Assembly (NCBI GenBank): GCA_964016885.1
Contig: OZ024742.1
Coordinates: 317,316,001 to 317,380,000 of the forward strand
DNA: 64,000 nucleotides
Reading direction: 5' to 3'
Origin: Eledone cirrhosa
Taxonomy: Eukaryota
This document shows positions 14,851 to 64,000 of this stretch, one piece after another. How positions within the stretch are numbered: position 1 is the stretch's first letter; each line of letters starts with the position of its first letter. A program made the position numbers and the translations under genes. The notes under the pieces are model-generated. The model was not told the DNA's origin. It saw only the letters and a program-made list of their open reading frames with translations, and did not search any database.

Positions 14851-15458
14851 TGGTGGCTGCCAACTCGTTTTCGAGTACGGCCACTACTTTATATCCATGT
14901 AGGAGAACCCCTACCGATGCGCTGAACGAGTGTGACTTTTTAGTCCAGCCAGCGACTTGAAAACTCCGGCACAAACACTACACTTGTGACAATTATTGAC
15001 ACAGTGTACATGGTACCATGTGACGACAAGTGCAGAGAGATCTCCAGATACAAAGCAATGCCTGTGCCGTGAAGCTTTTATAGTGAGCAAAGGCACTGCA
15101 CAAAGCCAGTCCCACTCTCTTAACCAAGATGATATTTACCAAAAAGAAGAACAAGTCAACATCATTGGATACCATCAGGGTTGCAGGTGTTATATCAGAG
15201 TTTTCCTTCTCCTAGAATTCTGCCTTGACAAAGGCTAAGGGGTCATCTCTCCCGGTGATTTTAGATGGCCATTGACTCTTAATAGCTCCTCTGCCCTTTG
15301 ACATGTTTTGTTTTTAGTCCTGCAGGATGTCCAAAGTCACCCTCCTCACCAAGAAACCTTGGTGGGGTTGCCAGTTTAGTCGCCAACGACCCGACCATGA
15401 GACAGGTTGTACTGGGATACATGTTACCAGTAGCATCAAGTGGTGACCTGACATAACG
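14851..15458 (-). mobile_element. Non-autonomous bipartite RTE-derived retroposon, copy 1 (longest)
   Basis: Near-identical to 41424-42007 and 55091-55518. The 5' part aligns with the RTE 5'UTR at ~40930-41160. The 3' part encodes [23 protein letters not shown], like the RTE C-terminal finger. (TGTA)n tail. Confidence 0.88.
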
Positions 15459-15522
15459 TACATACATACATACATACATACATACATACATACATACATA
15501 CATACATACATACATACATACA

Positions 15523-15585
15523 TGATGATGGCTGCCCCCTCGTTATCGAGTATGGCCATTGCAGGAGACAATATATATATTGCAG
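15523..15585 (-). mobile_element. Orphan 3' terminus of the RTE family
   Basis: TGATGGCTGCCCCCTCGTTATCGAGTATGGCCATTGCA is identical to the RTE end at 53318-53354 and is preceded on the + strand by (TACA)n. Confidence 0.85.
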
Positions 15586-15598
15586 TTATTATTATTGC

Positions 15599-15650
<52 letters not shown>

Positions 15651-16553
15651 TGCATTTATCTTCCTTTATGTTTATACGAGTTATCACCAAGTCACAACCA
15701 GTGACCTCAAGAGACATCAAGGTCCGCCATGTTCAAGAAAGAACACACATATTCACACATGCATCCTTAGTGTTTAGACTTGTGATGTACTTATATTGAC
15801 AGGATCTTCCTTAGTATATGGGCAGTGCCCATTAGTACTATCTTTTGTATTTCTCCTATACGCGGGTTTCCTGGGATTTGCGATAAGTAGTCGTTAGACC
15901 CCTTAGGTATCATTCCCAGAGCGCCTACAACCACTGGTATTGTTTTAGTTCTCAATTTCCACATTTTTCCAATTTCTATCTCCAGGTCCTTATACTTGCT
16001 CAATTTTTCAAATGTTTTTATAGATACATTCTTGTCTATTGGAACAGACATATCAATTAGCAGGCATACCCTCCTTTGAAAGTCCTTCAATATTATATCA
16101 GGTCTATTTGCATCTATTTTTCGGTCTGTTTGGATGCTAAAGTTCCACAAGATTGAGATGTGATCTTTTTCAAGTATGGGAGGTGGTTGATGCTCCCACC
16201 AATTCCTTTGATGGGGCAGGTCAAAATGCTTACACATTATCCAATGTATGTATTGTGCAGCTCTGTCATGCCTGTTTAGGTATTCGGTTGGAGCTATAGG
16301 ACTGCACATTGAAATTATATGGTCAATGGTCTCTGGTTGTTTTTTGCATACACGGCATAATGGGCTGCACCCATTTTTTATTATGTTGGCTTGGTAATTT
16401 TTTGTTGGCAGACACTGATCTTGTGCCGATATAATCAGTCCTTCAGTCTCCGATTTCAGTCCAGAGGATGCCAACCACTGATGGGTTAAAGTTTTGTCAA
16501 CATCAGGATTGTTAGCTCGCTCTGGGTATTTTCCATACAGAGGCTTTTCTTGC

Positions 16554-16557
<4 letters not shown>
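15651..16557 (-). mobile_element. R4/Dong-like RLE retrotransposon family B, 5'-truncated copy B1
   Basis: ORF 15791..16474 has CCHC (CRVC...HIISMC), RHD and the RPD...IDMSVP...K RLE motifs; (TTA)n on both sides. Confidence 0.92.
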
Positions 16558-16617: not shown

Positions 16618-16826
16618 GGCGACCTACGTAGGAAATCGTATTATCGTGAGCTCCGCAAAGGTTTGTTATTTTCGTTTGTTTAAAAATTGCCATTTATAGA
16701 AAATTTTATTGTAAACTGTTTATAAGCACACATACATTGTTTTCCGAAAAGGACACCCAAAAAGATTGGGGTCTTGTGCCCAAAATTTTAACTTTTATTA
16801 TTATCCAAAAATTTCTTTGAAAAAAA

Positions 16827-18817
16827 ATGGCTAATTCCCCTCTGCACGAAGCAGCTGAAAGCCTTCCTCACAAATTAACACCTCACACCGACACCACCAT
16901 TGTAAATGTTACTACGTTTGCCAACACAAAAAAAAATATAAGCAGTAGCAATATTTTAAATTTGTCTCAGGCAGACATTCATTTCCCGCCATTACCAATG
17001 ACTGCAGGTGTTAAACCCTCCACCACCACCACCACCGCGACAACCACCACCACCACCACCACCGCGACAACAGAAACAAAAGAAGAAAAAAATAAATTAA
17101 CTCGTGACGTCGAAATGAAATCAAGCAAAATGGACTCTTCCCCACCAAAGACGACTGACGTCACCACCACCACAACTGAAAATAAAATTAATATTAACGA
17201 TAGCAACAACAACAACAATGACATTATAAAACCGACCCTCAGTTTCGCCATCGTAGCAAAACAATTCGAAGCGTTCACGGTAACTCAAGAAGATTTAGAA
17301 AATGCCAAACAAATGGTAAAGAAAGATGGGTACAGGGTCAGCCTCACCCCCCCCCCCCCACCTAATAAAATGGAGCATCGGCGCCTGTGCACCGTGTCGT
17401 ATAGAACAATAAATGTAAAATCGCGCCGAGTGGAACGGGCATCCGAGTCCCAAATCCAAAAAGCTTTGGGACATGTGTGGGCAAGAAAAACCCACATCAG
17501 ACGTGGGCAAAAGTATGGAACCGTGGATGTGTTCTTTGAAACACCAGAGGAGGCTAGAGAACACTCCATGGCCCCATTAAAAAGTGACGACTTCACACTC
17601 GTCCCAAGCTATTGTGGCCAGAGACTCGTAAAGATCAGGGTGACCCACGTTCCACCGGCCATCGAAATTCCCTGGCTAATAGCGGCTGTCATCGCCGGCA
17701 TCGAGGCCAACACGAAATTAATAACAATAGCAAAAGAAAAGCAGGAAAACTGGTCCGGATCTGGGATGGAGCTCCTGATCCAAGCGGACCAAAAAAGCAT
17801 TGAGGAGATCCCAGAGGTAATAGACCTCACTGACGGCAGCCACCTCACGGTAATTGTCGAGGGCAGAAGACCTAGGTGTGTCGTTTGTGGTGAAGGAACC
17901 CACCTAAGGGCTTTCTGCCCTCAGACTAAAAGGTTGAGGCCACCTCTCCTACCCACCCCAGTGACACAACCATCAACACCACCAGTAGCAGAGATGCCAG
18001 CAACAACTGTAGCAGCAACAACAGAAGCAACTATAACAGCAACAACCCCAGCAACAGTAGCAAAACCAACACCACTACCACCACCAGCAAAACCAACACC
18101 ACCACCACCCAACGCTTCAGAACTAGCACCAGCGCCTACACCATCCACCACACCACAACCAAAACTAACGGCTGTGGAGGATTTTCCACTCCCCGGCCTA
18201 TCACAACTGGAGACAGATTGTGACGACGAGGAGTGGGAAACGATATCCGGAAAAAAAAAAGAAACCAAAAAAGAAAAAATTCTCTTCCTTCCCCCTCCAA
18301 AAACAAAATACAGAGGGAAACAAATAAACTAAGAAACAAAAAAGTTAGGACAGATATGCCACCATCCACACCAGCATCACCAACCCCATCAACCCAAACA
18401 CCAACACCATCACCATCATTAACTCCAACACCACCATCACCTACACCACAAAAGTCACCAAAATTCGAAACAGAAACAAACCCACAACAAACGCAAACAA
18501 AACAAAACAACCAAAACGATACACACTACACAGCATTAAATTTGAACAACAAGCAATTATTACACTACATCCAACACAACACCAGCATCACAGAAAAAGA
18601 CTACACAACAACCCCAAAATTCACACCACCTCCACACATACAAATCACTCGCATCACACAGAAAACGTACATGACACTAAAACAAAAATTCCCCAAAGAC
18701 ATCGGAGACTTCCGACAAGCACTCTCCAGGAGGATTTATAAGGACATCCTTCCTGAGGAGGCCACAAGCAGTGAAAAGGATGGAAAAGCCGTCCTTCCCC
18801 TACGAGAAGTAAGGTAA
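16827..18817 (+). pseudogene. Tx1-like ORF1 (gag-like, CCHC zinc knuckle), frameshifted near the A-run at ~18255
   Basis: CVVCGEGTHLRAFC knuckle; Thr/Pro-rich flanks; continues in ORF 18233..18817; homologous to ORF1 at 31560-33279. Confidence 0.85.
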
Positions 18818-18851
18818 GTGGTCTTTCCCATCTTTTCCACTCCTTTTCAAC

Positions 18852-21800
18852 ATGACCTCACTCAGAATAGGCAGCATAAATGCGTGTGGCTTGGGGTCGT
18901 CATGGAAGCAGGGCCACCTGCTCAACGACCTCAGGTCACTAAACATAGATGTAGTGGCCATCAGCGAGACCAGAATCTCCGAAGCACAGGCTTTCGCACC
19001 GATCTTCGGCGGCTACGGTGTGTACGCATCTCCCAGCCGTCCGGGATCGGGGGGAGGAGTTGCTGTGCTTTTTAGGAGAGGTTTGGATCTTGCCATACGG
19101 GCCATCTTCCTGGACCCAGAAGGTAAGTTGGTGGTGCTGGACGTGACCAGCGGAGACGGGCAAGCTTTCAGGTTAGTGGCCGTCTATGCCCCGACAGGAG
19201 CAGGGCGGCCTGATTTCTTCCGGCGTCTGGAGACCTTTTTTGGAACGTCCCGCTCTTTAGTGTTAGTGGGCGACTGGAACGGGATCTTAGATGCACGCTG
19301 GGATTGTGTGGGATTAGTGGATAGGGAAGGAGGGTGCAAGAGTCTCACCAACCTGCTCAGACGTTTTGAACTGTCTGACAGGTACCGAATGGATTTCCCG
19401 AATGTACCAATGTGGACTTGGACAAATCGCATAGGGTCATCCAGATCATATCTAGATAGAGTATTTTGTAGGGAAATAGATAGGTCTAGCATAGGCTGTC
19501 CACAATTCAAGATAGTCAGCTACACGGACCACAAATTCGTGATCTGTGTGCTTGACTTAGATAGGCTTCATAGACGAGGACCCGGCTACTGGAAGCTAAA
19601 CGCGTCCTTACCAGCGCGCAAGGCCTACAGAGACCGGATTAGCGAACTAGTTAAGCGGGCGTTGACGGGGGCCATCGTCAACAACAAGTGGTGGTTTGCT
19701 CTGAAAAGAGCAATTAGAATAGAGTCCATTAGGTTTAGTAAGACTTTAGCAATAGAGAAAAATAGAGCAGAGGGAGAACTAGTTAGAAAATTAGATGAGG
19801 CGCTTAGCAAAGGCATCGCGACCGACGTACTTGCGGCGAAATTGGCCCTTGACCAATTCTTCAATGCAAAGCACGAAGGCTGCGTTGTCAGAGCTAGGGT
19901 GCGTGCTCTCAGACACGAGGGGACGAAAGCCGTTTAATGGGCCCGAGTGGCGGAGGCGCGTCGTGGCAACAAAGCCACGATCCGGTCTTTGGTGGACCAC
20001 GACGGGCGCATGCTACTCGATCCCGGGCAAATGTGTGAAGCTTTTCAGCGACACTTCGCTCAACTGTTCGGGGGCAGTGGCGGGCCGGATTGAGGGATGG
20101 ACTTTAGTGTCTACCTCGACGGACTGCCGCGGCTCTCGGCCACTGAGGCGGAGTGTTGCGAAAAGCCGATAACAACCGCTGAAGTACGGATGCAATGACT
20201 AGTTGCACAAGGGGTAAATCGCCTGGTTTGGATGGTCTGCCCTATGAACTTTACGTACAAATGCCAAACTTGTTCGGAGGCCTCTTGGCGGACGTCTACT
20301 GCAACTGGCAACAGAACGGGAGAATTCCCAGCTCTGTGAGCCGAGGAGCGGTGGCACTGCTGAGAAAGGATCCGAACAAGGGGGATAACATAGATAATTT
20401 TAGGCCCATAACTCTGCTAAACACAGAGTTCAAGATTTTGGACAAGGTGCTAGCAAAGAGGTTGGCGCTTGTCGTTGGTGGTCTGGTGGGAGAGGCACAG
20501 ACATGCGCCATTCCCGACAGATCCATCCACGACAACCTCCACCTCATGCGATACATCGTAGAGAGGGTAGCTGGAGAACCTGGCACGGGTGGGTCTTTGA
20601 TCAATTTAGATCAGTCGAAAGCCTTCGATAGGGTCGACCATCGTTACCTAGCGGCAGTCCTGAGGGCGGCTGGCTTTGGGCCCGTCTTCAGAGGCTGGAT
20701 CGCTGCCATGCACAATGACATCTGCTCTGTAGTGAGAGTGAACGGTCACCTTTCGGAACCGTTCAACATCATGCGCTCGGTCCGCCAAGGATGTCCTCTC
20801 TCGTCCCTATTGTACGTATTGACTCTCGAGCCATTACTGCACAAACTGGAGACGTTGAGGGGGGTCCCGCGCGAACTAGGATGCGGAAGATCCGTGTCAG
20901 CTATGCCGACGATGTCACCGTAGTGGTGTCGAACGCCAAACACATCGAGGCGATCGGCACTACACTAAGAGAATACGAAGCGGTGACAGGAGCAATGATC
21001 AACCAGGAAAAGTCAGTGGGCCTGCAGCTCAGCACCTGGAGAGGCAGGTCCATGCCGTCCAACAGCGTCGTCGGGCGCTGGACGGACGGACCGGTTAAAT
21101 TGCTAGGGGTCTGTTTCGGTCCAGACCTCCAGACGGACAAAAACTGGGACGAGGTGACGAGCAGGGTGGCTTCTCTCACCCAGAAATGGGCCGAGAGGAA
21201 GCTATCCCTGAAAGGTCGAGCGGAGGTGGCGAATGCGTACATCGCATCCGTCATCTACTACCGCCTGACCGTCGTACCTTGTCCTAAGCCCCGCCTGACT
21301 GCGCTGGAGCGTTTGCTCTTTCGCTTCTTGTGGAAGGGACGCGCTCCGATGGTCAGGCGGTCCATCTGCTGTCAACACCCGCTACGTGGAGGGCTGGGCA
21401 TGCCGTGGCTGATGATGCGCAGACACGCGCTCAGGCTACGACATCTCCACCTCTTCCTCGACGGTGATCAGGTGTAGTCGTCGTTTGCAAGACACGTTTT
21501 TACCCAGCTCGTCTCCTTGACGGAGCTGCAGTCCTGGGTCAAGCGAAGACCGAGAGGGAGCGCTTGGAGACTGGAATGTCTTCAGGCGCTCACAGCCCTC
21601 GACCAATCGGGCAATGTGATCGGTGGAAACTCCACCTTGGCGTTCTATAGGGGATTAGTGGAGGGGAAGAGCGACGACGTACTTGGAGAAACACTAGGCG
21701 TCGACGAAAATCAACTAGCCAATCTCTTCGAAAGGACTTTCGGGCCAGGGCCTATGGACAACTTCCAGAAATCCCTGGCCTGGCAGTGCTACCGAGGAGC

Positions 21801-22270
21801 TTTGCCAGTTCGGGATAAACTCTACAGGCATGGAGGTGCCGTCAAACCGGGCATGTCCGAGATGCGCGCAGGGCGACGAAACCGTCCTGCACGCACTCGT
21901 CCAGTGTCCGAGCATTGCTGACTTGTGGGTTTATGTCGAACACCTGCTGTCACGTGTAGGACGGATCCAGCTATCAGTTGAGTCCATCGTGAGGATTGCC
22001 CCGCCCCCTTCCTTTAGCCTGGAAGGGCAGGCAGTTTTTATCTGTCTGGTGGCCATGGCGAAAGAGATAGTATGGTGGACACGTTTGAAAGGGCTGAAGA
22101 CGAGCACTTACCTCTTCGGTGATGCCCTGATTAACTTTTTCAAATTTCATTTGAAAAGGAAAATCAGGGTAGAGAGGGAAGTGCTCTCTTCCCAGCATTT
22201 TGTTGAAAGATGGGTGAGAGAAGCAAGTATGGCCCGAATGAATGGGCCTTCTCTGAGTATGTGTCTGTAA
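18852..22270 (+). pseudogene. Tx1-like ORF2: APE endonuclease, reverse transcriptase, C-terminal CCHC; several stops and frameshifts
   Basis: GSINACG, ISET, VYAP, GDWN, LDRVF, YTDH (APE); KSPGLDG, FRPITLLN, KAFD, RQGCPLS, YADD (RT); CPRC...HALVQC. Confidence 0.93.
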
Positions 22271-22512
22271 ATTAAAGGTGGAAAACTGGGAGAGGGCACT
22301 TGCCCTGGTGGTCAGGGCCACTGTGGTCTTTTAATGGGCTTTCTCCACAAATGTCCCTTGGAAGTCTCCCCCCTATTGGGGAATTTTTCTTTGTTATTTT
22401 ATTTCAACCTCTGTTTTTTTACACGCAGAAATGCCCATTTGTACCGTCCTGTATTGTCCTGTACTGTCCTTAATGTCTACTTTATGTGAACCCTTGTGGT
22501 TAATAAAGAAAA

Positions 22513-22552
<40 letters not shown>

Positions 22553-25500
22553 GTTCTTTGAGTCTCAGTCATTGATGTTAGTTAACTGGAAAGTTTGTTG
22601 AAATGAATATCAAGCCACTACCTGCAGCCTCAGATATTCAGGACGTATCGGAGGGTTCTTGCTGTTCCCAACAAGCATGCCTTTTGAAGCGTTCCAAAAA
22701 GCGTGGCTGGGCCAATTTTCTTTAACCATCCCTGGAAACTTTTTGAGATAGTACCTAGTGTGCCTATGACAATCGGGACCACTTTGACTTCATGGCAGTT
22801 CCAAATCCTTTTTACCTCCCACTTTAAGTCCTGGTGTCGGTTAATTTTCTCCCTCTCCTTCTCTTGCACTCTCGTGTCAAATGGGCAGGCCACATCCACA
22901 ATCAGGCACGATCTTTTTTCTTTGTCCAAAACCACCAGGTCAGGTCTATTGTGTTCCAATTTTATGTACGTCTGTATCCTAAAATCCCACAGCACCTTCA
23001 CCTGATCGTTTTGTATCACCGACTCTGGCTTATGCTCAAACCACTTCTCAGAATGTGGTAAATTGTTTACCTCACCCTGCCCATCACATCATGTCTCCAG
23101 CCCATATAGTGAGTCTGGGCTAGATGTTTACACTCGGATACAATGTGACCCACAGTCTCATCTCTCTCTCCACAGATTCTGCACAGTGGGCTAGCCTCCT
23201 CCTTGTAAATATGGTGTTTCAACCACTTCGTTTTGAGGGCCTGCTCTTGCGCAGCCATTAACATTCCTTCTGTATCCTTTTTAAGGTCTCCTCTTTTCAA
23301 CCAGTTCCATGTCTGTGGATCTCTGAATTCAGTTTCTCAAAGAAGGTACTATGAAGGGATTTTTCAGTCACGTATTTGTGTAGGTTGTTTTTCTCCATCT
23401 GAACACAGTCCTCTATGCTGATAAGACCTCTTCCACCTTCAGATCTCCTTAAGTAGAGTCTATCGACATCACTCCTCTTGTGGAACATGTTGTAGATAGT
23501 CAATAGCTTCCTAGTCTTCCTATCCATTTCTTTTTGTTCAGCAACATTCCATCTCAGAATTCCCGCACTGTACCTAATAATAGACACAGCTCGGGAATTT
23601 ACTGCACTTATGGCATTCCTACTGTTCAGATGTGACTTTAATACGCTCCTTACTCTCCGAATGTATTCAGTTCTTATCAATTCCTTCATTTTTTTGTTCT
23701 TGATCTCATCAGCCTCCAAAACACCCAAATACTCGTATCCTTCTTCAGAGTCAATTTCCTTTATCATCTCACCTGTTGGTATCTGGATTCCGTTACTTCT
23801 GCTCAACCTACCCCTCCTCATCACAATGACTCCACACTTACTAATACCAAACTGCATACATATATCACTGCTGAAAATACGGACAGTGTCAACAAGCACA
23901 TCCAACTCCTTCTCACTCTTCCCGAAGAGCTTAAGATCATCCATGAAGAGGAGGTGATTGATGGTAAGCTCTCCCTTTCCCAACTTGTATCCTGCTCTCA
24001 CTTTTCGAAGTATAATGGCCAGGGGCATCAGGGCAAGGACAAACAACAGAGTGTACAGACTATCTCCCTAGAAGATACCTCTCTTGATCTTCACTCCTCC
24101 CAAGGAATCTCCAGCTGATATTAACTCTGTTTTCCAGGACTTCATACTTTTGCCCAACAACTGTCTGATGTTATCTGCCACGTTGAAGATCTCTAGGCTT
24201 TTGGTGATCTAAGAATGAGGCACCATGTCAAATGCCTTTCTGTAGTCTATCCATCCCATGGCAAGACCAGTGTGTCTCCTCTTCCAATTCCTCATTACCA
24301 TCTTATCAATAAGTAACTGGTCCTTTGTACCACGGGACTTCTTTCGGCATCCTTTCTGTTCGTCCGGTAACAAGTTGTTTGTGTAGAGGTGATGGTAGAT
24401 TTCCTCAGACATAATGCTTGTCAACAGTTTCCACATTACGCACAGACATGTGATAGGTCTATAGTTGGTAACATCATTAACCTTGATTCGGTCTTTCATT
24501 ACCAGAACTGTAGTACCTTTTGTCAACCACTCTGGTACCTCACCTGACATCAAGCAGTCATTGAACATGGTTGTCAGTTTCAGGTGGAGGGATGTTATAT
24601 TTTTAATCTAATACCCCTGCACACCATCTGGGCCTGGTGATTTCCAGTTGGTTAGTTTTTTGGCCTGCCCCTTAAGAGTTTCAACTGTGATACTCAAATC
24701 AGTTTGTTGGTGTGCCTGTTCACTAATCTCCTTTTGTACTGTCTCAATCCAAACTGTCTGGTCAATATGTTTAACATCCTGCTCCCATATTCCTCTCCAG
24801 AAGGTCTTAGTTTGTTCCGCCTCAGGGATCAAGTCGTTGCCTCTTTCTTTCCCTTCAGGCTGTCCAAACAGCATCTTCTGGTTGTTGTCAAACATGCGGT
24901 TCTGTCTATACTGACTGACTCTGCTCTCGTATCGCCTAATTTTTGCACTCTTTGCTACAATGCGTTGCTTCAGTTCCTCTATGATAATATTTAGCTTTTA
25001 CCTCCTAGTTTTGTACTTTATCTCCAGTCTATTTTTAGTGTCTATGTTTTTTAGTATCCCATTCAGTAGGGACTCAAGCTTTCCAATGTCATTTCTCATT
25101 TCCCTGATTCGAGCATTCAGTCGTTTCTTCCACCAAGGCTCTGATCTTTTTTGTTTGTTGTTTCCTCTCGCTTTTATGCCAAGTAATTTCCTCACCACAT
25201 TTGCTGGTGCTTTGAGGATATTGTTGCACTGGTGAAGGCTCCTCGCCTCAAGGTATGGGATGACTTTGTTTACCTTAGCTGTTGTTTCTTTTAACTTTTT
25301 CCTGTCTACAAATCTTAGGTTCATAGGTTTCCCACTATCATTGTTCAATTCATCTACCACTAAGTTTAGGATATCAACCAAATCTTGTCCTAGCCCGTCA
25401 GCATTCATCTCCTCAATGGCCGTATCTTTGTTCCAGGTATTATTTATTTCAGCATTCAGATCATTGTCTGCTTCGGATGGTTCCTCCGTTCTCTCAACCT

Positions 25501-26786
25501 CTTCACCTTCATTTCCCACTGGCTCGTTTGCCTGGCATACTCCACTCTCCATTTCCAACCTAATCTCTCTGCTCAGTTCCTCCAGTTCCAGCTCGCTTAT
25601 CCACACATTAGTTCTTATTACCCGAGCCTACCCGGCCAATTTTTGTTCATCTAATTTAAATAGACCAATCTCGTTCCAGATGTTATGCATCCGTTTCCTA
25701 TAGCCTTTCTCCTTGGGGTTACTCTTCAGGTAACATTGCATAACAGTTCTATTCAATTCTTTCGTCCAGTTGGTTCTGGTCCCTTTCCTTCTTCTTCTAC
25801 CTCCGACACCAGCAGTATTTGGTTGACAGCCAGGTCCCTGCTGCTGAGCCAGGGAGCACCTGCTGGGTGAGAGTCTGTCACATGACATTCCAGTCTCCAC
25901 TTCACCGTTATTCGAACTGTTTAGGTTCGACATTTAAACACTCTTATCGAGGATTGGTGAATGTATGGTTGCATAACCACCGGTGATTTTTTTGTGTGGC
26001 ACTATCACGCTGTAGACGAACATAAATAAACAAACAAACAAATAGGTAAAAAAAACAACCAAAAAGAATAAGCATAAGTTTCATTGTAATGTAATGTTTG
26101 AATGTTTGACTTAGTTTTTCTTTTCCCTTCTCTGTCTGTCTGTTTGTTTTTCTTTTCATTTTTCTTTCCTTTACGTTTTTCGTTGTTGCTGTGCTGCTTT
26201 GATTTTGATTTTTGTTTTTTTGATTTTTTTGACAGGGTCATCAAATCAGTCTATTTATATCTTTTGATACCTTCCTCTTTTAGTGGGAACACTACGATGC
26301 ATGTCTTAGCAGGAGGCAGTGGGGAGAATAGCGGCAGTAGTGATAATGAGGCAGTGGTTGTGGTGGTGGCGGTGCTGTGCTAGTAGTACTTAGCAGGAGG
26401 GAGTGGGAGAGAATAGCGGCGGTAGCGATAATGAGGCAGTGGTGGTGGTGATCTGATCGTAGTACTGTAGTGATGGTGTTGAAGTTGAAGTAGAAATAGA
26501 AGTTGAGGTAACTTGACTAGAGCTTTTGGCTGTTCACATTTAGCTATTTAGCCATTTTGCCATTTTCCTCTTTTTCGACTATAACATTTCTGATCCAAAA
26601 TTAAATATTAAATATTGGGGCCCTATGCCGTAAAGTGATGCGTTATGGCTTGCTGAGCATTAAAACTGTAATCTTATTGTTCATTTGTAATAAGAATTAT
26701 TCTATCACAGTTGTTTTAAAGAAGTAAAAATCAAAAACTTACGGGAGCGATTCCATAACGATATATATCCACCATGTGCGTTTTCT
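22553..26786 (-). mobile_element. R4/Dong-like family A, apparently full-length copy A1 (frameshifts and internal deletions)
   Basis: ORF pieces from 25933 to 22630 are colinear with the 1038-aa ORF at 59422..62538; FMDD RT, CCHC and RPD RLE motifs; ~850-bp 5'UTR; (TTA)n on both sides. Confidence 0.92.
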
Positions 26787-26803
26787 TTATTATTATTATT
26801 ATT

Positions 26804-50049: not shown

Positions 50050-50109
50050 TATATATACATATATATATATATGCATACATATATATATATATATATATAT
50101 ACATATATA

Positions 50110-50195
<86 letters not shown>

Positions 50196-50400
50196 ATAGT
50201 AGTATGGAAATTTGTTTCGGACAAAGCACTTTAGCAGAAAAGCCAATAACAACCAATAGAAAAAGAGTGACATGGTGAAATCTATTGCAGTAAAACAAAT
50301 CACACACGCATACTCACGCGCGCACGCGACATACACACACACACACACACGCACACACACACACATAAACACACACACACACACACAAATATATATATAT
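49480..50400. repeat. Compound (TA)n/(TATG)n/(TAG)n/(CA)n microsatellites
   Basis: Read directly. Confidence 0.9.
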
Positions 50401-51580: not shown

Positions 51581-51746
51581 CATACATACATACACACATA
51601 CATACATACATACATACATACATACAGATGGACATGCGTACATACATACATACATACATACAGACGGACATACATACATACATACATACATACATACATA
51701 CATACATACATACATACATACATACATACATACATACATACATACA
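51581..51746. repeat. (TACA)n tract
   Basis: Read directly; abuts the family D element. Confidence 0.95.
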
Positions 51747-53283: not shown

Positions 53284-53317
53284 CATACATACATACATAC
53301 ATACATACATACATACA

Positions 53318-53386
53318 TGATGGCTGCCCCCTCGTTATCGAGTATGGCCATTGCACAATAAAAAAAAAAAAATAAATAAAAAAAAA

Positions 53387-53437
<51 letters not shown>

Positions 53438-53469
53438 GAAAAAAAAAAAAAAAAAAAAAAAGGGAAAAG

Positions 53470-53506
<37 letters not shown>

Positions 53507-53628
53507 TATTCATATATATATACATACACATATATATACACACACACATACATACACATACATACATATATACACACACACATACATACACATACACTCA
53601 CACATATATACACACATACATTAATAAC

Positions 53629-53674
<46 letters not shown>

Positions 53675-53759
53675 GCAATAATATTAATAACGACAACAAC
53701 AACAATAATATACATATTCATATATATATACACACACACGCACGCACATAAGCATATCC

Positions 53760-53791
<32 letters not shown>

Positions 53792-55049
53792 GATAGCAAC
53801 TAACAGTGCTGCGATCGAATGTGGCTTTTTAGCCCAGCCAATGATCTAAAATGTCTTGCACAGAGTCGGCAACCAAAACATTTACTGGGAATAGTCGGCT
53901 GTGGTTGGAGTTCGTGTACTTTTGCATGTCGCTTGAGTCCTCCTGCTGATTTACATTCTCTACCACATGTTTGGCAAGCATGATGAGTAGCATCTCCAAC
54001 AGCAGCCTGGTAGTCAACCACTGGTCTTACTTTATGACTGCGAAGATGACTTTCGAGTCCAGCTTTGCTTAGGCAGAGTCTCGCACAGACGCTGCATGTC
54101 AGAAACATAGGAGGACCCTCGCCGTCTGGAAGTGCAACAGCAATACCCTTCCTCACGTTCCGCTTTACTTTCTCGTGTGCGATTCGAGATGCCTCAAAGG
54201 CAACTTTTCCCTCATATACAGTCTTTCTCCATTTATTACGATCAGCAGCAATATTTTCCCATGTATCAGCAGAGATGTTAGCGTCTTTCAGAGAGGCCTT
54301 CAAGGAATCCTTATACCTCTTTTTTGGTTTATGTGGCGGTCGTTTTCCTTTAACCAACTCTCCATAGAAGAGTTGTTTTGGTATTCTAGAATCCTTCATC
54401 CTGGCAAGGTGACCACTCCAACGGAGTCGCTGCTTAAGCACAAGAGCTTCTATACTGTCACACATAGAGCTTTCCAAAATCTCGACATCACTGATGTGGT
54501 CCCTCCAGCGAACGCCATGTATCCGTCTGAGACACATCTGATGGAAACGCTCCAATTGCCTAAGGTGGCGTCGATATGTGACCCAGGTCTCGCAGGCATA
54601 AAGAAGACAAGAGAGTACACATGCCCTGTACACCCTTACCTTTGTCCTCCTGCATATGTCTCGCCGACCCCAGAGTCGCCTTTCTAGCTTTCCGAAAGCA
54701 TCACTTGCTTTCCTAATCCTAAGTGAGATTTCACTGTCAAGGTTGCCGTATCGATTGACAGTGCTTCCCAGGTAGACAAACTGATCAACCACTCCAAGTC
54801 GTTTGCCATACACATAGATGTTTGGTTCAGTGTACTGCCTACCAGGTGCAGGTTGGTACATGACGACGGTTTTCTTGAGACTGACAGTCAAACCCAGGGC
54901 AGTGCAAGCGTCAGAAAATACATTCAAAATGTGCTGCATATCACTCTCTGTGTGCGCTACAAGATCGCAATCATCTGCATACAAGAGGTCTCTTATGACT
55001 GATGTAAATACCTTTGTCTTCGCAGCAAAGCGCCTGATGTTAAATATGC
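53318..55049 (-). mobile_element. RTE/BovB-like LINE copy 2, 5'-truncated, open 3' ORF with three C2H2 fingers, microsatellite-filled 3'UTR
   Basis: ORF 53800..~55049 has YADD, FVYLGS, LRWSGHLARM and three CxxC...H...H fingers; terminal hairpin at 53318-53354; (TACA)n on both sides. Confidence 0.92.
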
Positions 55050-55090
55050 ATACATACATACATACATACATACATACATACATACATACA

Positions 55091-55518
55091 TGGTGGCTGC
55101 CAACTCGTTTTCGAGTACGGCCACTACTTTATATCCATGTAGGAGAACCCCTACCGATGCGCTGAACTAGTGTGACTTTTTAGTCCAGCCAGTAACTTGA
55201 AAACTCTGGTACAAACACTACACTTGTGACAATTGTTGACACATAGTGCTGGGCCCATGGTACCATGTGACGACAAGTGCAGAGAGATCTCCAGATATAA
55301 AGCAATGCCTGTGCCGTGAAGCTTTTATAGTGAGCAAAGGTACAGCACAAAGCCAGTCCCACTCTCTTAACCAAGATGATATTTACCAAAAAGAAGAACA
55401 AGTCAACATCATTGGATACCATCAGGGTTGCAGGTGTTATATCAGAGTTTTCCTTCTCCTAGAATTCTGCCTTGACAAAGGCTAAGGGGTCATCTCTTTC
55501 GGTGGTTTGGATGGCCAT
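55091..55518 (-). mobile_element. Non-autonomous bipartite RTE derivative, copy 3 (5'-truncated)
   Basis: Matches 14851-15272; (TACA)n on both sides. Confidence 0.88.
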
Positions 55519-55561
55519 ACATACATACATACATACATACATACATACATACATACATACA

Positions 55562-55594
<33 letters not shown>

Positions 55595-55595
<1 letters not shown>

Positions 55596-56916
55596 GAGTA
55601 AAGAAAATATGGTCATCAGAACTGTCAGCGTACAACAAATTCATTGCCTACAATATTTATGCTGTGCCAATTCTAACGCCAACATTTGGCCTGCTGAACT
55701 GGTCATTGCAAGAACTAAGTGAGATGGATGTTAGAACTCGCAAACTTCTCAGTGTTATTGGGAACTTTAACATCAATGGTGATGTGGATAGGCTATACTT
55801 CTCACGCAAGGAAGGTGGTCGGGGTTTAAAATCCATATTAACAACATATGAGACCCGGATAGTAGCACTGAAGCAACACCTTCATCAGAGGAAAAAGGTT
55901 GGCAACCATCTTGCCCAGGTTTATGAGCATGAAATAAAAATATCATTAGAATAGCGACTGATCTGGAGGAGAGATATGGAATAAAGCCTGATATAAATCT
56001 CTCACCCAGAGAAATCGGAAGCTCCTATTCAATGTTCAAACAAGATAAAAAAAATTAACCAATTTACAGAAAAAGTTGTGCATGGATACTTGAGACGTAA
56101 AACACAGTTCTTAGAGAGGATAAACCACTCAAAAGGCCTGGCATGGAGTTCCGACAAGTTTATGACATCACACCTTGAGGGATATCTCTAGGCAATACAG
56201 GAACAAGAACTCCCTACCAAATATCTGCTGCACAAAAGAGGAGGGCCAGCAGCTGACAATAAATGTAGGCTATGTAAAACAAAGATCGAGGATGTAAGCC
56301 ACATTGTTGCCAGCTGTGAAAGAATGTCATCTCGCTACTACCTCCCCATGAGACACGATGGGATAGCTAGAACCATCTGGAACGCACTTCGGAAAACAAA
56401 ATTAACAACAAACGAGGAAGAATATATTGAGACAGATGGCACTAAGGAATACTGGTGGAACCTGAAAATAAAAACTGCTACCAAATTAAGCACAACCGGC
56501 CTGATATTGTTGTTTGGGACCACACATTGAAAACGTGTTCTGTTGTGGAGATCAGCTACCCACTTGATGTAAACGTTGTCAGAAAAATACAGGAGAAGGA
56601 GGACATCTACGGACCATTGATGAGGAGTTTACAAATCCAGTATCCAAGATACACCTTTAGCTTCATACCCATCATTATTGGAGCTATGGGTTATATACCA
56701 ACCCGCTTGGACCAAAGTATGACTGAACTTGGATTTGCGGACAAAGAGCGCAGCTCCCTAATTCACAGTCTACAAATGGCTGCGATAGCTGGCACCTTCA
56801 AAATTTGCAAGACATTCTTGCGATTCAAGGGATGACAATTTCTTTTCTTTTACAACCTTGCCACAAGGAAGGTGGCCGGTCAAAAAAATATACTCGAAAT
56901 TAAGAGAAAGAGATAA
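55595..56916 (+). mobile_element. Family C, 5'-truncated copy C2
   Basis: Near-identical to 44986-46286; begins after (TACA)n and ends GAGATAACATACA. Confidence 0.9.
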
Positions 56917-57739
56917 CATACACACAGGCATACATAAATACAAAGAAATACATTTTGAACTTCAACAGAGAAAATCGTCACTAAATAGGCAAATTCGAAA
57001 ATCAACACCCTTTTAAAAGCAGACAACTACCAAGTTGTATAATTTCCTTTGACCTATTCAGCTTACCCATTACAAGGCCCTAGAGCTACCTCCCTACTTA
57101 CCACCATCCGCGTTGAGCTGGATAGCCGCAGGTGTGAGCCTCGCGAGATGGAATCGCTTTTCTCGCAGATCTCCATTATCATCCCCCGGATAAACGCATT
57201 CTCCACTCTGTCCGCCAGGGCCGTGGGGTGGTCAGCACGCGGGACCCAATTTTCTCATAATAGAGAGAGATGGAGAGGGCGAGAGAGATGGGGTGGGCGA
57301 GAGAGAAGGAGGCGATGACAGTGGGAATTCGGCTCATGTGTTTGAACCTGGTGTACAGCATCAGTTATCCGTAAGGAGGTAGTGATACATCTACTATTAT
57401 CTTGGATGCTAATCTGCATTACACCTTATTCTATCTAGAATCTAACATATATAGTATCAATACAGAATAATTGTCGAATAATACAAACCTGAAGCTTCTG
57501 TAGCCAACTCTGATATCAGGCGTCGTACCTCAATCTTTCAATTGTTATTCCATAACGAAATGTGCTTTAATGAAATTATTTACATTCGTTCCATACAGAT
57601 AATTCAATCTTCCTGTAGTAGCCTCATTCTCAGTTTTCTAGGTCTCATGCCGATCCAAGTAAATAATTATATAGTGAATGTTATTTCAAATCAAAACATC
57701 AAATCAATCTGACAGCATAAAGTTTTCTAGACGTTTTAA

Positions 57740-57742
57740 CGC

Positions 57743-57779
<37 letters not shown>

Positions 57780-57863
57780 TACATACGAGTGTGTGTGTAT
57801 ATATATATTGTATATATGTATATTATATACATATTTATATATATGCATAGCAAGCCACACCAG

Positions 57864-57944
<81 letters not shown>

Positions 57945-58051
57945 TGATGTGGCTTGCTATGCATATATATAAATATATATATAATATACATACATATATA
58001 TGTATGTATATTATATATATATTTATATATATGCATAGCAAGCCACATCAG

Positions 58052-58096
<45 letters not shown>

Positions 58097-58165
58097 AATA
58101 TATTATATACATATATATTTATATATATGTATAGCAAGCCACATCGGACACACACACACATACAC

Positions 58166-58196
<31 letters not shown>

Positions 58197-58210
58197 CATA
58201 TATATATAAA
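57740..58210. repeat. Microsatellite block with direct and inverted copies of a GCATAGCAAGCCACATCAGAC core
   Basis: Core at ~57845 (+), ~57942 (-), ~58033 (+) and ~58130 (+). Confidence 0.88.
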
Positions 58211-58819
58211 GAGAGACAGAATGGGTAGACATTGTGAGAGCAAGGGTGAGAGGAAAGAGAGGAAGAGAGAGAAAGAGTAGAGAATATATGATAGAAATAC
58301 AGAAAATTAATTAAAAGTAGGAGGAAGAGTTATAAAATGAGAATGGCGAGAAGGAAAAATAAATCTTGAAGTTAAGCTTTTGGAAGTAGGACTGTCGTTT
58401 CTGATAAAGGGATAAAAAACATTATTGAATAATAAAGATCCTATGATATCACTAAACTGAAGAAAATTTTATATTTTTATCGATTGATTCTTGTAGTTTT
58501 CTTTCATTATATTTCACGCCATTCCATCAATCGGAATATTTAGTTTTTTGATATTTTCCCTTTCATTACATATAATTTATCTTCTTTATTTTTTTTTCTC
58601 ATGCATAAATTATTACTTCAAAACAATTTTTTATTGAAAGTTTTTCCTACATGTATTTTTAGGGGGTGGGGGTTGTATTAGTTTCACTAATATTGTTCTC
58701 ATTAACCACCCAGTTCTGCGTTCTATTTTCATTGAAATCCAATTAATTTAATTTACACAATCAATGCGTTACGGAAATGCATGAAGGTCTTACATTCACT
58801 TATTATTATTATTATTATT

Positions 58820-58938
58820 TACGATCTGAGTTCAAATCCCGCCGTGGTTGACTTTGCCTTTCATCCCTACGGGGTCGATAAAATAAAGTACCAGTAATGC
58901 ACTGGGTAATTGCTGGCCTTGTGCCTAAAGTAGAAACA

Positions 58939-58990: not shown

Positions 58991-61900
58991 TCTTGAATCT
59001 CAGTCATTGATGTTGGTTAACTGGAAAGTCCGTTGGAATGAATATCAAGCCACTACCTGCAGCCTCAGATATTCAGGACGTATCGGAGGGTTCTTGCTGT
59101 TCCAAGCAAGCATGCCTTTTGAAGCGTTCCAAAAAGCGTGAAGGGGCCGATTTTCTTTAACCATCCCTGGAAACTTTTGGAGATAGTCCCCAGTGCGCCT
59201 ATGACAATCGGGATAACTTTGACTTCATGGCAGTTCCAAATCCTTTTGACCTCCCACTTTAGGTCCTGGTATCGGTTAATTTTCTCCCTCTCCTTCTCTT
59301 GCACTCTCGTGTCGAACGGGCAGGCCACATCCACAATCAGACACGATCTTTTTTCTTTGTCCACAACCACCAGGTCAGGTCTATTGTGTTCCAGTTTTTT
59401 GTCTGTCTGTATCCTAAAATCTCACAGCACCTTCACCTGATTGTTCTCCATCACCGCCTCCGGCCTATGTTCATAACATTTCTCAGAATGTGGTAAATTG
59501 TTTACTTTGCACAGGTGCCAGTGGATCACCCTGCCCATCACATCGTGTCTCCAGCCCTTATAGTGGGTCTGGGCTAGGTGTTTACACTCGGACACAATGT
59601 GAGCCACAGTCTCCTCTCTCTCTCCACAGATCCTGCACAGTGGGCTAGCCTCCTCCTTGTAAATATGGTGCTTCAACCACTTCGTTTTGAGGGCCTGCTC
59701 CTGCGCAGCCATTATCATTCCTTCTGTAGCCTTTTTGAGGTCTCCTTTTCTCAACCAGTTCCATGTCTGTGGATCTCTAAATTCAGTTTTCTCAAAGAAG
59801 GTACTATGAAGGGATTTTCCCTTAAGGCTGCTCTTCCTCCTTGATGTTATTTCCTCCTTGGACATCCCCTGGCCTACTGTCCCCTCCTTCAGTACAGTTT
59901 TGAGCATTGGCTCCTTACTATAGGTCACGTATTTGTATAGGTTGTTTTTCTCCATCTGAACACAGTCCTCTATGCTGATAAGACCTCTTCCACCCTCAGA
60001 TCTCCTTAGGTAGAGTCTATCGACATCACTCCTCTTGTGGAACATGTTGTAGATAGTCAATAGCTTCCTAGTCTTCCTATCCATTTGTTTTTGTTCAGCA
60101 ACATTCCATCTCAGAATTCCCGCACTGTACCTAATTATAGACACAGCTCGGGAATTTACTGCGCTTATGGCATTTCTGCTGTTCAGATGTGACTTCAATA
60201 CGCTCCTTACTCTCCGAATGTATTCAGTTCTTAACAATTCCTTCATTTTTTTGTTCTTTATGCCATCAGCCTCCAGAACGCCCAAATACTTGTATCCTTC
60301 CTCAGAGTCAATTTCCTTTATCATCTCACCTGTTGGTATCTGGATCCCGCTACTTCTGCTCAACCTACCCCTCCTCATCACAATGACTCCACATTTAACA
60401 ATACCAAACTGCATACATATATCACTGCTGAAAATACGGACAGTGTCAACAAGCACATCCAACTCCTTCTCACTTTTCCCGAAGAGCTTAAGATCGTCCA
60501 TGAAGAGGAGGTGATTGATGGTAAGCTCTCCCCTTCCCAACTTGTATCCTGCTCTCACTTTTCGCAGCATAATGGTCAAGGGCATCAGGGCAAGGACAAA
60601 CAACAGAGGGGACAGGCTATCTCCCTGGAAGATACCTCTCTTGATCTTCACGCTTCCCAAGGATACTCCAGTTGATGTCAACTCTGTCTCCCAGGACCCC
60701 ATACTCCTGCCCAGCAGCTGTCTGATGTTATCTGCCACCCTGAAGATCTCCAGGCTTTTGGTGATCCAAGAATGAGGCACCATGTCAAATGCCTTTCTGT
60801 AGTCTATCCATCCCATGGCAAGATCAGTGTGTCTCCTCCTGCAGTTCCTCATTACCATCTTATCAATAAGTAACTGGTCCTTTGTACCACGTGACTTCTT
60901 TCGGCATCCTTTCTGTTCGTCCGGTAACAATTTGTTTGTGTGGAGGTGATGGTAGATTTCCTCAGACACAATGCTCGTCAACAGTTTCCACATTACGGGC
61001 AGACATGTGATAGGTCTATAGTTGGTAACATCATTACCCTTGATTCGGTCTTTCATTATCAGAACTGTGGTACCTTTTGTCAACCACTCTGGCACCTCAC
61101 CCGACACCAAGCAGTCATTGCACATGGCCGTCAGCTTCGGGTGGAGGGATGTTAAATGTTTAATCCAATACCCCTGCACACCATCTGGGCCTGGTGACTT
61201 CCAGTTGGTTAGTTTTTTGGCCTGGCCCTTAAGAGTTTCAACTGTGATACTCAAATCAGTTTGTTGTTGTGCCTGCTCACCGATCTCCCTCTGTACTGTC
61301 TCAATCCACCCTGCCTGGGCATTATGTCTAACATCCTGCTCCCATATTCCTCTCCAGAATGTTTTAGTTTGTTCCGCCCCAGGGATCAAGTCGTTGCCTC
61401 TTTCTTTCCCCTCAAGCTGTCCAAACAGCATCTTCTGGTTGTTGTCGAACATGCGGTTCTGTTTATACTGACTGACTCTGTTCTCGTATCGCCTGATTTT
61501 GGCACTCTTTGCTACAATGCCATGCTTCAATTCCTCTATGATAATATTTAGCTTTTTACTCCTAGTTTTGTATTTTATTTCCAGTCTATTTTTAGTGCCT
61601 ATGTTTTTTAGTGTCCCATTCAGTAGTGACTCAAGCTTTCCTATGTCATTTCTCATTTCCCCGATTTGCCCACTCAGTCGCTTCTTCCACCACGGCTCTG
61701 CTCTTTCTTGTCTGTTGTTTCCTCTCGCTTTTATACCAAGTAGTTTCCTCACCGTATTTGCTGTTGCTTTGAGGATATTGTTGCACTGGTGAAGACTCCT
61801 CGCCTCAAGGTATGGGATGACTTTGTTTACCTTAGCTGTTGTTTCTTTTAACTTTTTCCTGTCTACAAATCTTAGGTTCATAGGTCTCCCACTATCATTG

Positions 61901-62476
61901 TTCAATTCATCTACCACTAGATTTAGGATGTCAACCGAATCTTGTCCTAGCCCGTCAGCATTCATCTCCTCAGTGGCCGTATCTCTGTTCCAGGTATTAT
62001 TTATCTCAGTATTCAGATCATTGTCTGCTTCGGGTGGTTCCTCCGTTCTCAGGACCTCCTCACCTTCATTTCCCACCGGCTCGCTTGTCTGGCATACTAC
62101 ACCCGCCATCTCCAAGCCATTCTCTCTGCTCAGTTCCTCCAGTTCCAGCTCGCTTATCCACCCATTAGTTCTTATTACCCGAGCCTGCCCGGCCAATTTT
62201 TGTTCATCTAATTTAAATAAACCAATCTCGTTCCAGATGTTATGCATCCGTCTCCTGTAGCCCCTCTCCTTGGGGTTACTTTTCAGGTAGCATTGCATAA
62301 CAGTTCTATTCAATTCTTTCGTCCAGTTGGTTCTGGCCCCTTTCCTTCTTCTTCTTCCTCCAACATCAGCAGTATTTGGTTGACAGTCAGGTTCCTGCTG
62401 CTGAGCCAGGGGGCACCTGTTGGGTGAGAGTCTGTCACATGACGTTCTAGTCTCCATTTCACCGTTATTCGAACTG

Positions 62477-62480
<4 letters not shown>
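58991..62480 (-). mobile_element. Family A copy A5: nearly intact ORF (lacks ~4 N-terminal codons, one TGG>TGA stop at 59422)
   Basis: 1038-aa ORF with N-terminal domain, RT (FMDD) and CCHC; the RLE continues in the same frame to 59065; flanked by (TTA)n. Confidence 0.95.
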
Positions 62481-62509
<29 letters not shown>

Positions 62510-62520
62510 GTTATTGTTAT

Positions 62521-64000
62521 TCCTTGAATCTTAGTCATTGATGTTGGTTAACTGGAAAGTCCGTTGGATTGAATATCAAGCCACTACCTGCAGCCTCAGA
62601 TATTCAGGACGTATCGGAGGGTTCTTGCTGTTCCAAGCAAGCATGCCTTTTGAAGCGTTCCAAAAAGCGTGAAGGGGCCGATTTTCTTTAACCATCCCTG
62701 GAAACCTTTGGAGATAGTCCCCAGTGCGCCTATGACAATCGGGATCACTTTGACTTCATGGCAGTTCCAAATCCTTTTCATCTCCCACTTTAGGTCCTGG
62801 TATCGGTTAATTTTCTCCCTCTCCTTCTCTTGCACTCTCGTGTCGAACGGGCAGGCCACATCCACAATCAGGCACGATCTTTTTTCTTTGTCCACAACCA
62901 CCAGGTCAGGTCTATTGTGTTCCAGTTTTTTGTCCGTCTGTATCCTAAAATCCCACAGCACCTTCACCTGACTGTTCTCCATCACCGCCTCTGGCCTATG
63001 CTCATACCATTTCTCAGAATGTGGTAGATTGTTTACTTTGCACAGGTGCCAGTGGATCACCCTGCCCATCACATCGTGTCTCCAGCCCTTATAGTGGATA
63101 TGGGCTAGGTGTTTACACTCGGACACAATGTGAGCCACAGTCTCCTCTCTCTCTCCACAGATCCTGCACAGTGGGCTAGCCTCCTCCTTGTAGATATGGT
63201 GCTTCAACCACTTCGTTTTGAGGGCCTGCTCCTGCGCAGCCATTAGCATTCCTTCTGTAGCCTTTTTGAGGTCTCCTCTTCTCAACCAGTTCCATGTCTG
63301 TGGATCTCTAAATTCAGTTTTCTCAAAGAAGGTACTATGAAGGGATTTTCCCTTAAGGCTGCTCTTCCTCCTTGATGTTATTTCCTCCTTGGACATCCCC
63401 TGGCCTACTGTCCCCTCCTTCAGTACAGTTCTGAGCATTGGCTCCTTACTATAGGTCACGTATTTGTATAGGTTGTTTTTCTCCATCTGAACACAGTCCT
63501 CTATGCTGATAAGACCTCTTCCACCCTCAGATCTCCTTAGGTAGAGTCTATCGACATCACTCCTCTTGTGGAACATGTTGTAGATAGTCAATAGCTTCCT
63601 AGTCTTCCTATCCATTTGTTTTTGTTCAGCAACATTCCATCTCAGAATTCCCGCACTGTACCTAATAATAGACACAGCTCGGGAATTTACTGCGCTTATG
63701 GCATTTCTGCTGTTCAGATGTGACTTCAATACGCTCATTACTCTCCGAATGTATTCAGTTCTTAACAATTCCTTCATTTTTTTGTTCTTTATGCCATCAG
63801 CCTCCAGAACGCCCAAATACTTGTATCCTTCCTCAGAGTCAATTTCCTTTATCATCTCACCTGTTGGTATCTGGATCCCGTTACTTCTGCTCAACCTACC
63901 CCTCTTCATCACAATGACTCCACATTTACCAATACCAAACTGCATACATATATCACTGCTGAAAATACGGACAGTGTCAACAAGCACATCCAACTCCTTC
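62521..64000 (-). mobile_element. Family A copy A6, open ORF running off the right edge
   Basis: ORF 62596..63993 is near-identical to A3; (TAA)n tail at 62481-62520. Confidence 0.93.

Follow-up and report, generated by a model that had tools for sequence, protein, structure and literature searches.

The question raised by this locus is why unrelated retrotransposons should be packed end to end in the genome of Eledone cirrhosa, with a microsatellite at the junctions that depends on the family inserted. The stretch analysed (the window) comprises 64,000 nucleotides, positions 317,316,001 to 317,380,000 of contig OZ024742.1 (379 Mb) in the 3.0-Gb assembly GCA_964016885.1. Between positions 14852 and 64000 it contains 21 element pieces, which belong to families A and B (R4/Dong type), families C and D (a further R4-like lineage), Tx1-like elements, an RTE, a short non-autonomous derivative of the RTE, and a short interspersed element (SINE). 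Read on the + strand, the junction repeat is (TTA)n for A, B, Tx1 and one SINE, and (TACA)n for C, D, RTE and the derivative; these two groups are subsequently referred to as the TAA and TACA guilds. We are confident that several unrelated families of elements that lack long terminal repeats (non-LTR elements) sit in (TAA)n or (TACA)n, and that targeting directed by their endonucleases is the likely cause, building arrays of several families.

Families A–D each consist of a single open reading frame (ORF) containing, in order, a reverse transcriptase (RT), a CCHC finger and restriction-like endonuclease motifs. A and B have an RVT_1 match in Pfam together with the motifs RHD, RPD and K..Y, the names given to those of restriction-like endonucleases. 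None of the four has an N-terminal zinc finger, and Pfam gave no C2H2 match for A or B; weak Pfam matches to MBD and TcdB_toxin_midC (E ~0.007, below the cut-off) were dismissed as chance. Structures of R2 match A and B from the RT onward only (E ~1e-25). Natural open frames found in other copies are 1216 aa long for A, 1141 aa for B and 1047 aa for C (the C-terminus taken from another copy), while the frame of D was recovered in pieces. The RTE has a single ORF of 1245 residues from stop to stop, with an apurinic/apyrimidinic endonuclease-like (APE) domain, an RT and C-terminal C2H2 fingers, and a repeat tail. Tx1 has an ORF1 and an ORF2 of 1152 residues, the latter with APE, RT and a C-terminal zinc finger. 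Amino-acid identity is 35% between A and B, 54% between C and D, 30–32% between A or B and C or D, and 22–25% between any of A–D and RTE or Tx1. These identities and the domain content therefore bear out the three clades and two endonuclease types that had been proposed from the window. The labels Tx1 and RTE are putative, given from architecture rather than from a tree with named members, and the former also leans on a resemblance to Tx1. In quick trees without any sequence named Dong, the RT of A and B groups with a protein from Pediculus, a genus included in an R4/Dong alignment (PMC7998251; here and below, papers are cited from excerpts). The set of Dong-R4, L1-Tx1 and RTE elements matches the octopus repeat tables excerpted (PMC13282606, PMC8967140).

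The association between family and repeat was examined at the 5' junctions of the 30 best loci per family, 80 loci being extended upstream and the window's own copy dropped where listed. A repeat was called if a 20-nt window no more than 12 nt from the 5' end matched at 85% or better; copies whose 5' end lay beyond the fetched DNA (A 8, B 9, Tx1 10, C 1, RTE 5) were left unscored. TAA was present at 18 of 21 junctions of A, two of the other three having TAA within ~45 nt, and at 17 of 20 of B, where the three misses are alignment breaks in the 5' untranslated region (UTR) and the element continues. Tx1 gave TTA at 17 of 20, 16 of these being full length; two of its misses have 8–9 nt directly behind another Tx1 tail and the third is a subfamily change. 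C gave TACA at 24 of 28 (one TGTA, three none) and D at 25 of 29 (one TA, three none). The RTE group was looser: the derivative showed TGTA at 18, TA at 6 and no repeat at 5 of 29 junctions, and the RTE TGTA at 10, TA at 4 and none at 11 of 25. Under the same rule 8000 background positions gave TAA at 0.16%, TTA at 0.11%, TACA at 0.49%, TGTA at 0.44% and TA at 6.1%. The family's own repeat thus occupies 85–86% of flanks in A, B, C, D and Tx1, far above the 0.11–0.49% background, the preference being genome-wide, and 40% (TGTA) and 62% (TGTA) in the RTE and its derivative. All exceed 20% of flanks of one sequence type, the level used to define a target-specific element (PMC4494074). Repeat calls across the guilds numbered 0 of 61 for A, B and Tx1 and 0 of 111 for C, D, RTE and the derivative, so the lack of clear crossover noted in the window holds, the exception being the RTE UTRs described below. 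The TACA guild, as originally drawn up, stands for C and D; the RTE (14 of 25 TGTA or TA) and the derivative (24 of 29) prefer TGTA and TA tracts, but loosely, and the RTE was rejected as a strict targeter.

Among copies truncated at the 5' end, 17 of 20 A and 14 of 17 B copies have TAA, and 23 of 26 C and 21 of 25 D copies have TACA, on the 5' side. When sorted into bins of 10 bp, the breakpoints occupy 19 different bins in A, 15 in B, 20 in C and 23 in D. With so many breakpoints, the repeat on the 5' side does not belong to the element itself. This confirms what had been read from the few truncated copies of the window, and supports repeat-specific targeting by three clades with two endonuclease types. 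A second search of 30 Tx1 loci added four clearly truncated copies, three with TTA and one without. The repeat is also fixed in strand. In the sense of each element it is (TAA)n for A and B, (TTA)n for Tx1, (TACA)n for C and D and (TGTA)n for the RTE group, such that in both guilds the restriction-like and the APE elements face opposite ways relative to the repeat. Repeat is kept on both flanks after insertion (median 23–47 nt downstream and 47–79 nt upstream).

Some individual loci of this sample deserve mention. At L302 the 5' side of a C copy is (GACA)n, and at L324 an RTE alignment stops at a run of (TTAGGG)n. Two Tx1 copies 0.6 Mb apart (L196 and L197), both counted above, have the same flanks and hence represent one insertion in a duplicated segment.

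The window itself was annotated against natural element copies, 5' ends across the sampled loci having been placed by alignment to a single natural reference for each family. Its features are as follows.

14688–14851, + strand: (TACA)n tract flanking the RTE derivative on its 3' side
14852–15455, − strand: RTE-related non-autonomous element (~600 bp), copy 1
15459–15523, + strand: (TACA)16 junction tract
15524–15563, − strand: RTE 3'-terminal stub
15586–15650, + strand: (TTA)n tract, opens the TAA-guild array
15650–16555, − strand: family A (R4/Dong type), 5'-truncated
16618–22513, + strand: Tx1-like element, full length, with ORF1 and an ORF2 (APE-RT-zinc finger) that is frameshifted in this copy; flanked by (TTA)n at either end
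22553–26786, − strand: family B subfamily (~90% identical to B), full length
26803–30522, − strand: family A, 5'-truncated; RT, CCHC finger and restriction-like endonuclease
30570–31286, − strand: family A, 5'-truncated
31341–33280, + strand: second Tx1-like family, 5' part; repeat-free joint to the next piece
33280–35284, − strand: B-variant element, 5' part; its 5' UTR is also a ~80% match to that of A
35341–36822, − strand: family B, 5'-truncated
36869–37384, − strand: family B subfamily, 3' piece; repeat-free joint to the RTE
37381–41242, − strand: RTE (APE-RT-C2H2), older subfamily, without 3' UTR; imperfect TTA tract in the 5' UTR (40852–40912)
41425–42007, − strand: second copy of the RTE derivative, lying between TACA-type tracts
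42103–46285, + strand: full-length copy of family C (R4-like lineage targeting TACA), flanked by (TACA)n at either end
51748–53282, + strand: 5'-truncated copy of family D (lineage of C, 54% amino-acid identity), lying between (TACA)n tracts
53319–55049, − strand: RTE, young subfamily, 5'-truncated; complete 3' UTR
53356–53790, − strand: composite microsatellite in the RTE 3' UTR, with two (TTA)n pads (53389–53430 and 53631–53672)
55092–55516, − strand: RTE derivative, 5'-truncated
55595–56913, + strand: 5'-truncated copy of family C with (TACA)n at its 5' flank and a tail that is short and degenerate
58820–58938, + strand: SINE, 5'-truncated, in (TTA)n here
58991–62477, − strand: family B, 5'-truncated; 1041-aa open frame
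62522–64000, − strand: family B, full length; extends to window position 67071

The pieces fall into three runs (14852–46285, 51748–56913 and 58820 onward), separated by gaps at ~46350–51580 and ~56940–58800; the last run continues past the window to at least position 82000, at least 18 kb beyond its end. The original prediction of about 20 insertions end to end was therefore right in number, the arrangement being three runs with gaps and not one unbroken run. A TAA-type array of A, B and Tx1 copies occupies 15586–37384 and a second begins at 58800, while C, D, RTE and the derivative lie in the TACA-type stretches 14688–15523, 41242–46349 and 51581–56913. The joints have the family-specific repeat that had been described; exceptions are two joints without repeat, the tracts within UTRs and a second SINE. 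The (TAA)n tracts at 53389–53430 and 53631–53672 were rejected as junctions, both belonging to the RTE 3' UTR. The stub at 15524–15563 and the RTE at 37381–41242 are compatible in strand and order with one split RTE, and the stub is possibly the far end of that element, separated from it by the 21.8-kb TAA array. The array between the two faces opposite to the pads of the young RTE subfamily. Outside the arrays, positions 1–8201 are a satellite of 59-bp units (139 copies, 93% matches) that runs off the window start, and 8320–10855 contains a TGT-rich 1.17-kb unit with a tandem duplicate ~90% identical, followed by TTC, TCA and GTG runs. Three 140-bp tandem units (34110–34525) lie within the 5' UTR of the B-variant element.

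Further copies of these families show additional features. No truncation is seen in sixteen of 20 extended Tx1 copies (L181–L200), several of which retain an ORF2 of 1150 residues, an intactness that is unusual beside the heavily truncated R4-type families. At L279:9152–9999 there is the 3' end of yet another Tx1-like family, the third, with 78% identity to the Tx1 of the window; it too terminates in a TTA tract. The longest A copies (L281 and L452) open with ~330 nt that are 70–80% identical to the B 5' UTR. Behind this come a TAA tract within the element and, farther along, a piece resembling a SINE. Despite these similar 5' UTRs the frames of A and B barely align as DNA, and capture of a 5' UTR between array neighbours is possible. 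A second short derivative of the RTE, consisting of the RTE 5' UTR fused to the last 40 nt of the RTE, occurs in TACA tracts at L011, L116, L146, L173 and other loci.

Multi-family arrays are general in the genome and not specific to the window. Across the tract from 137 A, B or Tx1 junctions the neighbour is A, B or Tx1 in 89 cases, a SINE in 10, an RTE UTR in 4 (one false on inspection), nothing known in 34 and a C, D or RTE body in none. At 199 junctions of C, D, RTE or the derivative it is a member of the same guild in 74 (three of which look low-complexity), a SINE in one, without a library match in 124 and never A, B or Tx1. A background sample of 40 regions of 10 kb (400 kb), taken at round-number coordinates, contained 12 (TAA)6+ tracts, and 10 of the 12 adjoin A, B or Tx1, as against ~2% of random positions.

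Families C and D are a deep R4-like lineage of their own, and the target follows this split. C aligns with A and B from residue 23–24 over ~1030 columns at 30% identity (E 1e-117 or better), and the C-terminal CCHC and endonuclease motifs are present in both C and D. C has 555 homologues at E ≤1e-20, and most of the best 104 listed are 41–65% identical; among the matches listed, an Argonauta protein of 65% identity is the only named close relative. In two quick trees, assessed by the Shimodaira–Hasegawa-like approximate likelihood ratio test (SH-aLRT) only, C and D form their own clade apart from A and B, with SH-aLRT values of 94 and 100. The first tree had two very long outgroups; the second was midpoint-rooted and included 20 of 80 metagenome loci, chosen by score and terminal repeat. 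TAA was found at 0 of 57 C and D 5' junctions, which places them outside Dong sensu stricto. A metagenome scan with C alone returned nothing, and an alignment-based scan yielded the 80 loci, 10 of which give C a better score than A or B. A tetranucleotide repeat terminates six of the 10, (TACA)n in two and (TACT)n in four; the six contigs come from three assemblies and so represent perhaps two hosts. The remaining four have no tract of 18 nt, and none of the 10 ends in TAA. TACA and TACT are absent from the other 70 loci, and a sense (AAT)n is seen at ~27 of them, not all checked as junctions. At two metagenome loci (L349 and L350) an A-like element adjoins (AAAT)n, which may be another variant of the target in the TAA clade.

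The SINE behaves differently from A, B and Tx1. Its 3' TTA run reaches at least 10 nt in only 6 of 29 copies and at least 18 nt in 2 of 29, and it was rejected as a strict member of the (TTA)n guild; that guild, as first proposed, holds for A, B and Tx1. Exact duplications of 9–20 nt flank 18 of the 29 copies, 13 of them beginning with ATTA and one lying at an implausible distance. The second SINE in the window (47816–48051) has no (TTA)4+ tract at either end, and Rfam and tRNA scans of the window gave no matches. As the SINE 3' end resembles, by eye, that of Tx1, the SINE likely borrows a Tx1-type enzyme that would accept a short ATTA site.

Such short sites for a SINE with a Tx1-like 3' end would suit a different explanation, in which the site is chosen by pairing: nicking is sloppy, and a nick serves for insertion only if the RNA repeat tail anneals there, or random insertions survive only in repeats. 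Tail-dependent site choice has indeed been proposed for RTEs (PMC6007223), and this explanation probably best describes the RTE and the SINE. As an account of all the families it is unlikely. The target tracks protein lineage across hosts, survival bias does not account for the fixed strand orientation or for 0 of 172 cross-overs, and 205 of 209 (TA)10+ tracts in the 400-kb sample are unoccupied. It would in any case alter the recognition step and not the arrays, and targeting by the endonuclease and pairing of the tail can both hold, for different families.

Whether the repeat precedes the insertion can be judged from the RTE. After the frame, 30 of 30 RTE loci run on into one common composite microsatellite, and 28 of 29 copies with a visible end contain two (TTA)5–20 tracts in the 3' UTR. 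Four loci have such a pad filled, by family A at L006, L279 (a locus of the background sample) and L284, and by B at L298; at L429 and L442 it is the RTE 5' UTR whose TTA tract is occupied, by Tx1. As the empty state of the pad is known, the insertions at these loci entered existing repeat; the target thus pre-exists and the guilds nest, being linked because the RTE carries TAA pads used by A, B and Tx1. At L298 there are ~14 units upstream, like empty pads, and B's own tail plus two units downstream. Filled pads total ~15 units at L279, 16–20 at L298 and 27 at L006, compared with 5–20 in empty pads, values that allow net growth of the repeat but do not prove it. The proposal that each insertion regenerates its pad accordingly stands as to the repeat being kept on both flanks, net gain being inferred from three comparisons. 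These pads also bear on the idea that there is no pre-existing target and that the repeat is made during insertion, from the RNA tail and, on the 5' side, by template jumping or slippage, and then expands. The location of 10 of 12 sampled long TAA tracts at element ends would agree with this, as would the family-coded start of the B tail and the known generation of microsatellites by RTE tails (PMC9115989, PMC6007223), and it may hold in part for the RTE. It is nonetheless improbable in general, given A, B and Tx1 inside pads that are found empty in 28 of 29 RTE copies, 5' tracts as long as or longer than 3' tracts, and single tracts common to different families on either side.

That the arrays are assembly artefacts, with reads chained through shared microsatellites, is scarcely credible: the public contigs on 22400–38000 (three runs, one sample) are short and no listed piece spans that stretch, but the pattern is seen at individual junctions of over 150 loci scattered across many chromosomes, array copies differ by 1–10% with consistent orientation, and the lineages end in like repeats in independent metagenome assemblies.

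Several points weigh against endonuclease-directed targeting as a complete account. The copies sampled are the top-scoring, youngest 30 per family and not a census. Just seven truncated Tx1 copies were seen, four with TTA, two with 8–9 nt and one with none. Bare 5' ends are frequent in the RTE, some being alignment breaks in its low-complexity 5' UTR, and the SINE is not tract-specific, lying mostly in unique sites. Two window joints, at 33280 (Tx1-like and 5' part of B) and at 37381–37384 (B and RTE), are without repeat; both look like deletions. The 12 background TAA tracts come from five regions, six of them from one array, a small and clustered sample, and the same 400 kb held only one (TACA)5+ tract, beside an RTE derivative. 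The evidence for net gain of repeat consists of the three comparisons of filled with empty pads, and within a perfect repeat a target duplication cannot be made out.

Non-LTR elements insert by target-primed reverse transcription at an endonuclease nick. The endonuclease is the main determinant of the target in such elements (PMC4494074), and a Myb-like N-terminal domain has been proposed for Dong (PMC7998251). What is observed is the flanks, their orientation, insertions nested in RTE pads and a target that goes with lineage; beyond this, endonuclease-directed targeting suggests the following scheme. Each predicted endonuclease would nick its own repeat and prime reverse transcription there; given the opposite orientations, the first nick would fall on opposite strands for the two enzyme types. 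A target duplication of ~10–20 nt together with the element's own tail would add a few units, which slippage may lengthen, such that one pad would become two after an insertion. Because free long (TAA)n tracts are presumably scarce, new copies would land mostly beside old ones. The RTE, entering abundant TA and TGTA tracts, would export fresh TAA pads and seed TAA arrays within TACA arrays. We further suggest, tentatively and with rather more doubt than confidence, that C and D represent a sister lineage of Dong, old, widespread and not described before, that reads a tetranucleotide repeat (TACA or TACT), and that the retrotransposons of this genome are a self-feeding network, the RTE exporting TAA pads within its own transcript, both enzyme types filling repeats from opposite strands and neighbours exchanging parts, as in the A and B 5' UTRs.

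Several families sharing one repeated target have precedents in TRAS and SART in (TTAGG)n, which face opposite ways, and in R1 and R2 in ribosomal DNA (rDNA). These sit at fixed loci (telomeres and rDNA), and TRAS and SART belong to one clade, whereas the targets described here are dispersed microsatellites carried by the elements themselves. Waldo, an insect element, belongs to the R1 clade. Its target, ACAY, includes (TACA)n (PMC3812793), and Mino, also of the R1 clade (PMC3124438), targets AC (PMC3812793); both are APE-type, whereas here (TACA)n is used by restriction-like elements and, loosely, by the RTE. Dong, of the R4 clade, is described from B. mori, A. gambiae, the snail B. glabrata and the ostracod D. 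stevensoni, and a (TAA)n target is stated for most insect, mollusc and cnidarian Dong elements (PMC7998251, PMC3812793). A and B share with Dong the single RT-CCHC-restriction-like endonuclease ORF, the lack of N-terminal zinc fingers and the (TAA)n target, so their use of TAA is inherited and not, as the original prediction had it, a new convergence. C and D have the same architecture but are ~30% identical to A and B, form their own clade and use (TACA)n, with relatives at (TACA)n or (TACT)n; for Dong, the excerpts of these papers (PMC7998251, PMC3812793) do not describe arrays to which other clades contribute. Among APE elements of the Tx1 clade that insert into microsatellites, Kibi targets TC and Koshi TTC (PMC3812793), and crocodilian Tx1 families TTCC and TTTC (PMC4494074). 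The (TTA)n target, used in common with Dong-type elements in opposite orientation, is not among the targets in the excerpt of PMC4494074. Togen, which is near NeSL/HERO and targets (TG)n, and some HERO elements are restriction-like elements with microsatellite targets (PMC4640811), compared with C and D by description only. The octopus RTE of Petrosino et al. (2022; PMC9115989), likewise compared by description only, has an APE-RT-C2H2 protein and a 3' UTR that is mostly microsatellite, and the excerpt reports no target preference or use as a landing pad. It is already published that Dong targets TAA and that Tx1 and Waldo target microsatellites. A TACA- or TACT-targeting R4 lineage, a TTA-targeting Tx1 and multi-clade microsatellite arrays were absent from the literature excerpts searched, which did not include Repbase or Dfam, where such families may be listed.

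The pairs A/B and C/D are a natural experiment, in that homologous restriction-like retrotransposons differ in having a three-base or a four-base repeat as target. The determinant of the target in the R4 clade, be it the N-terminal Myb-like domain, the endonuclease or the RNA tail, is therefore open to test. The findings explain the clustering of young long interspersed elements (LINEs) in a microsatellite-rich genome and show one element as the carrier of another element's target. In such genomes TAA and TACA markers and the calling of LINE insertions are confounded by the shared flanks. If the self-feeding network is real, the long TAA and TACA microsatellites of octopods would be largely its products.

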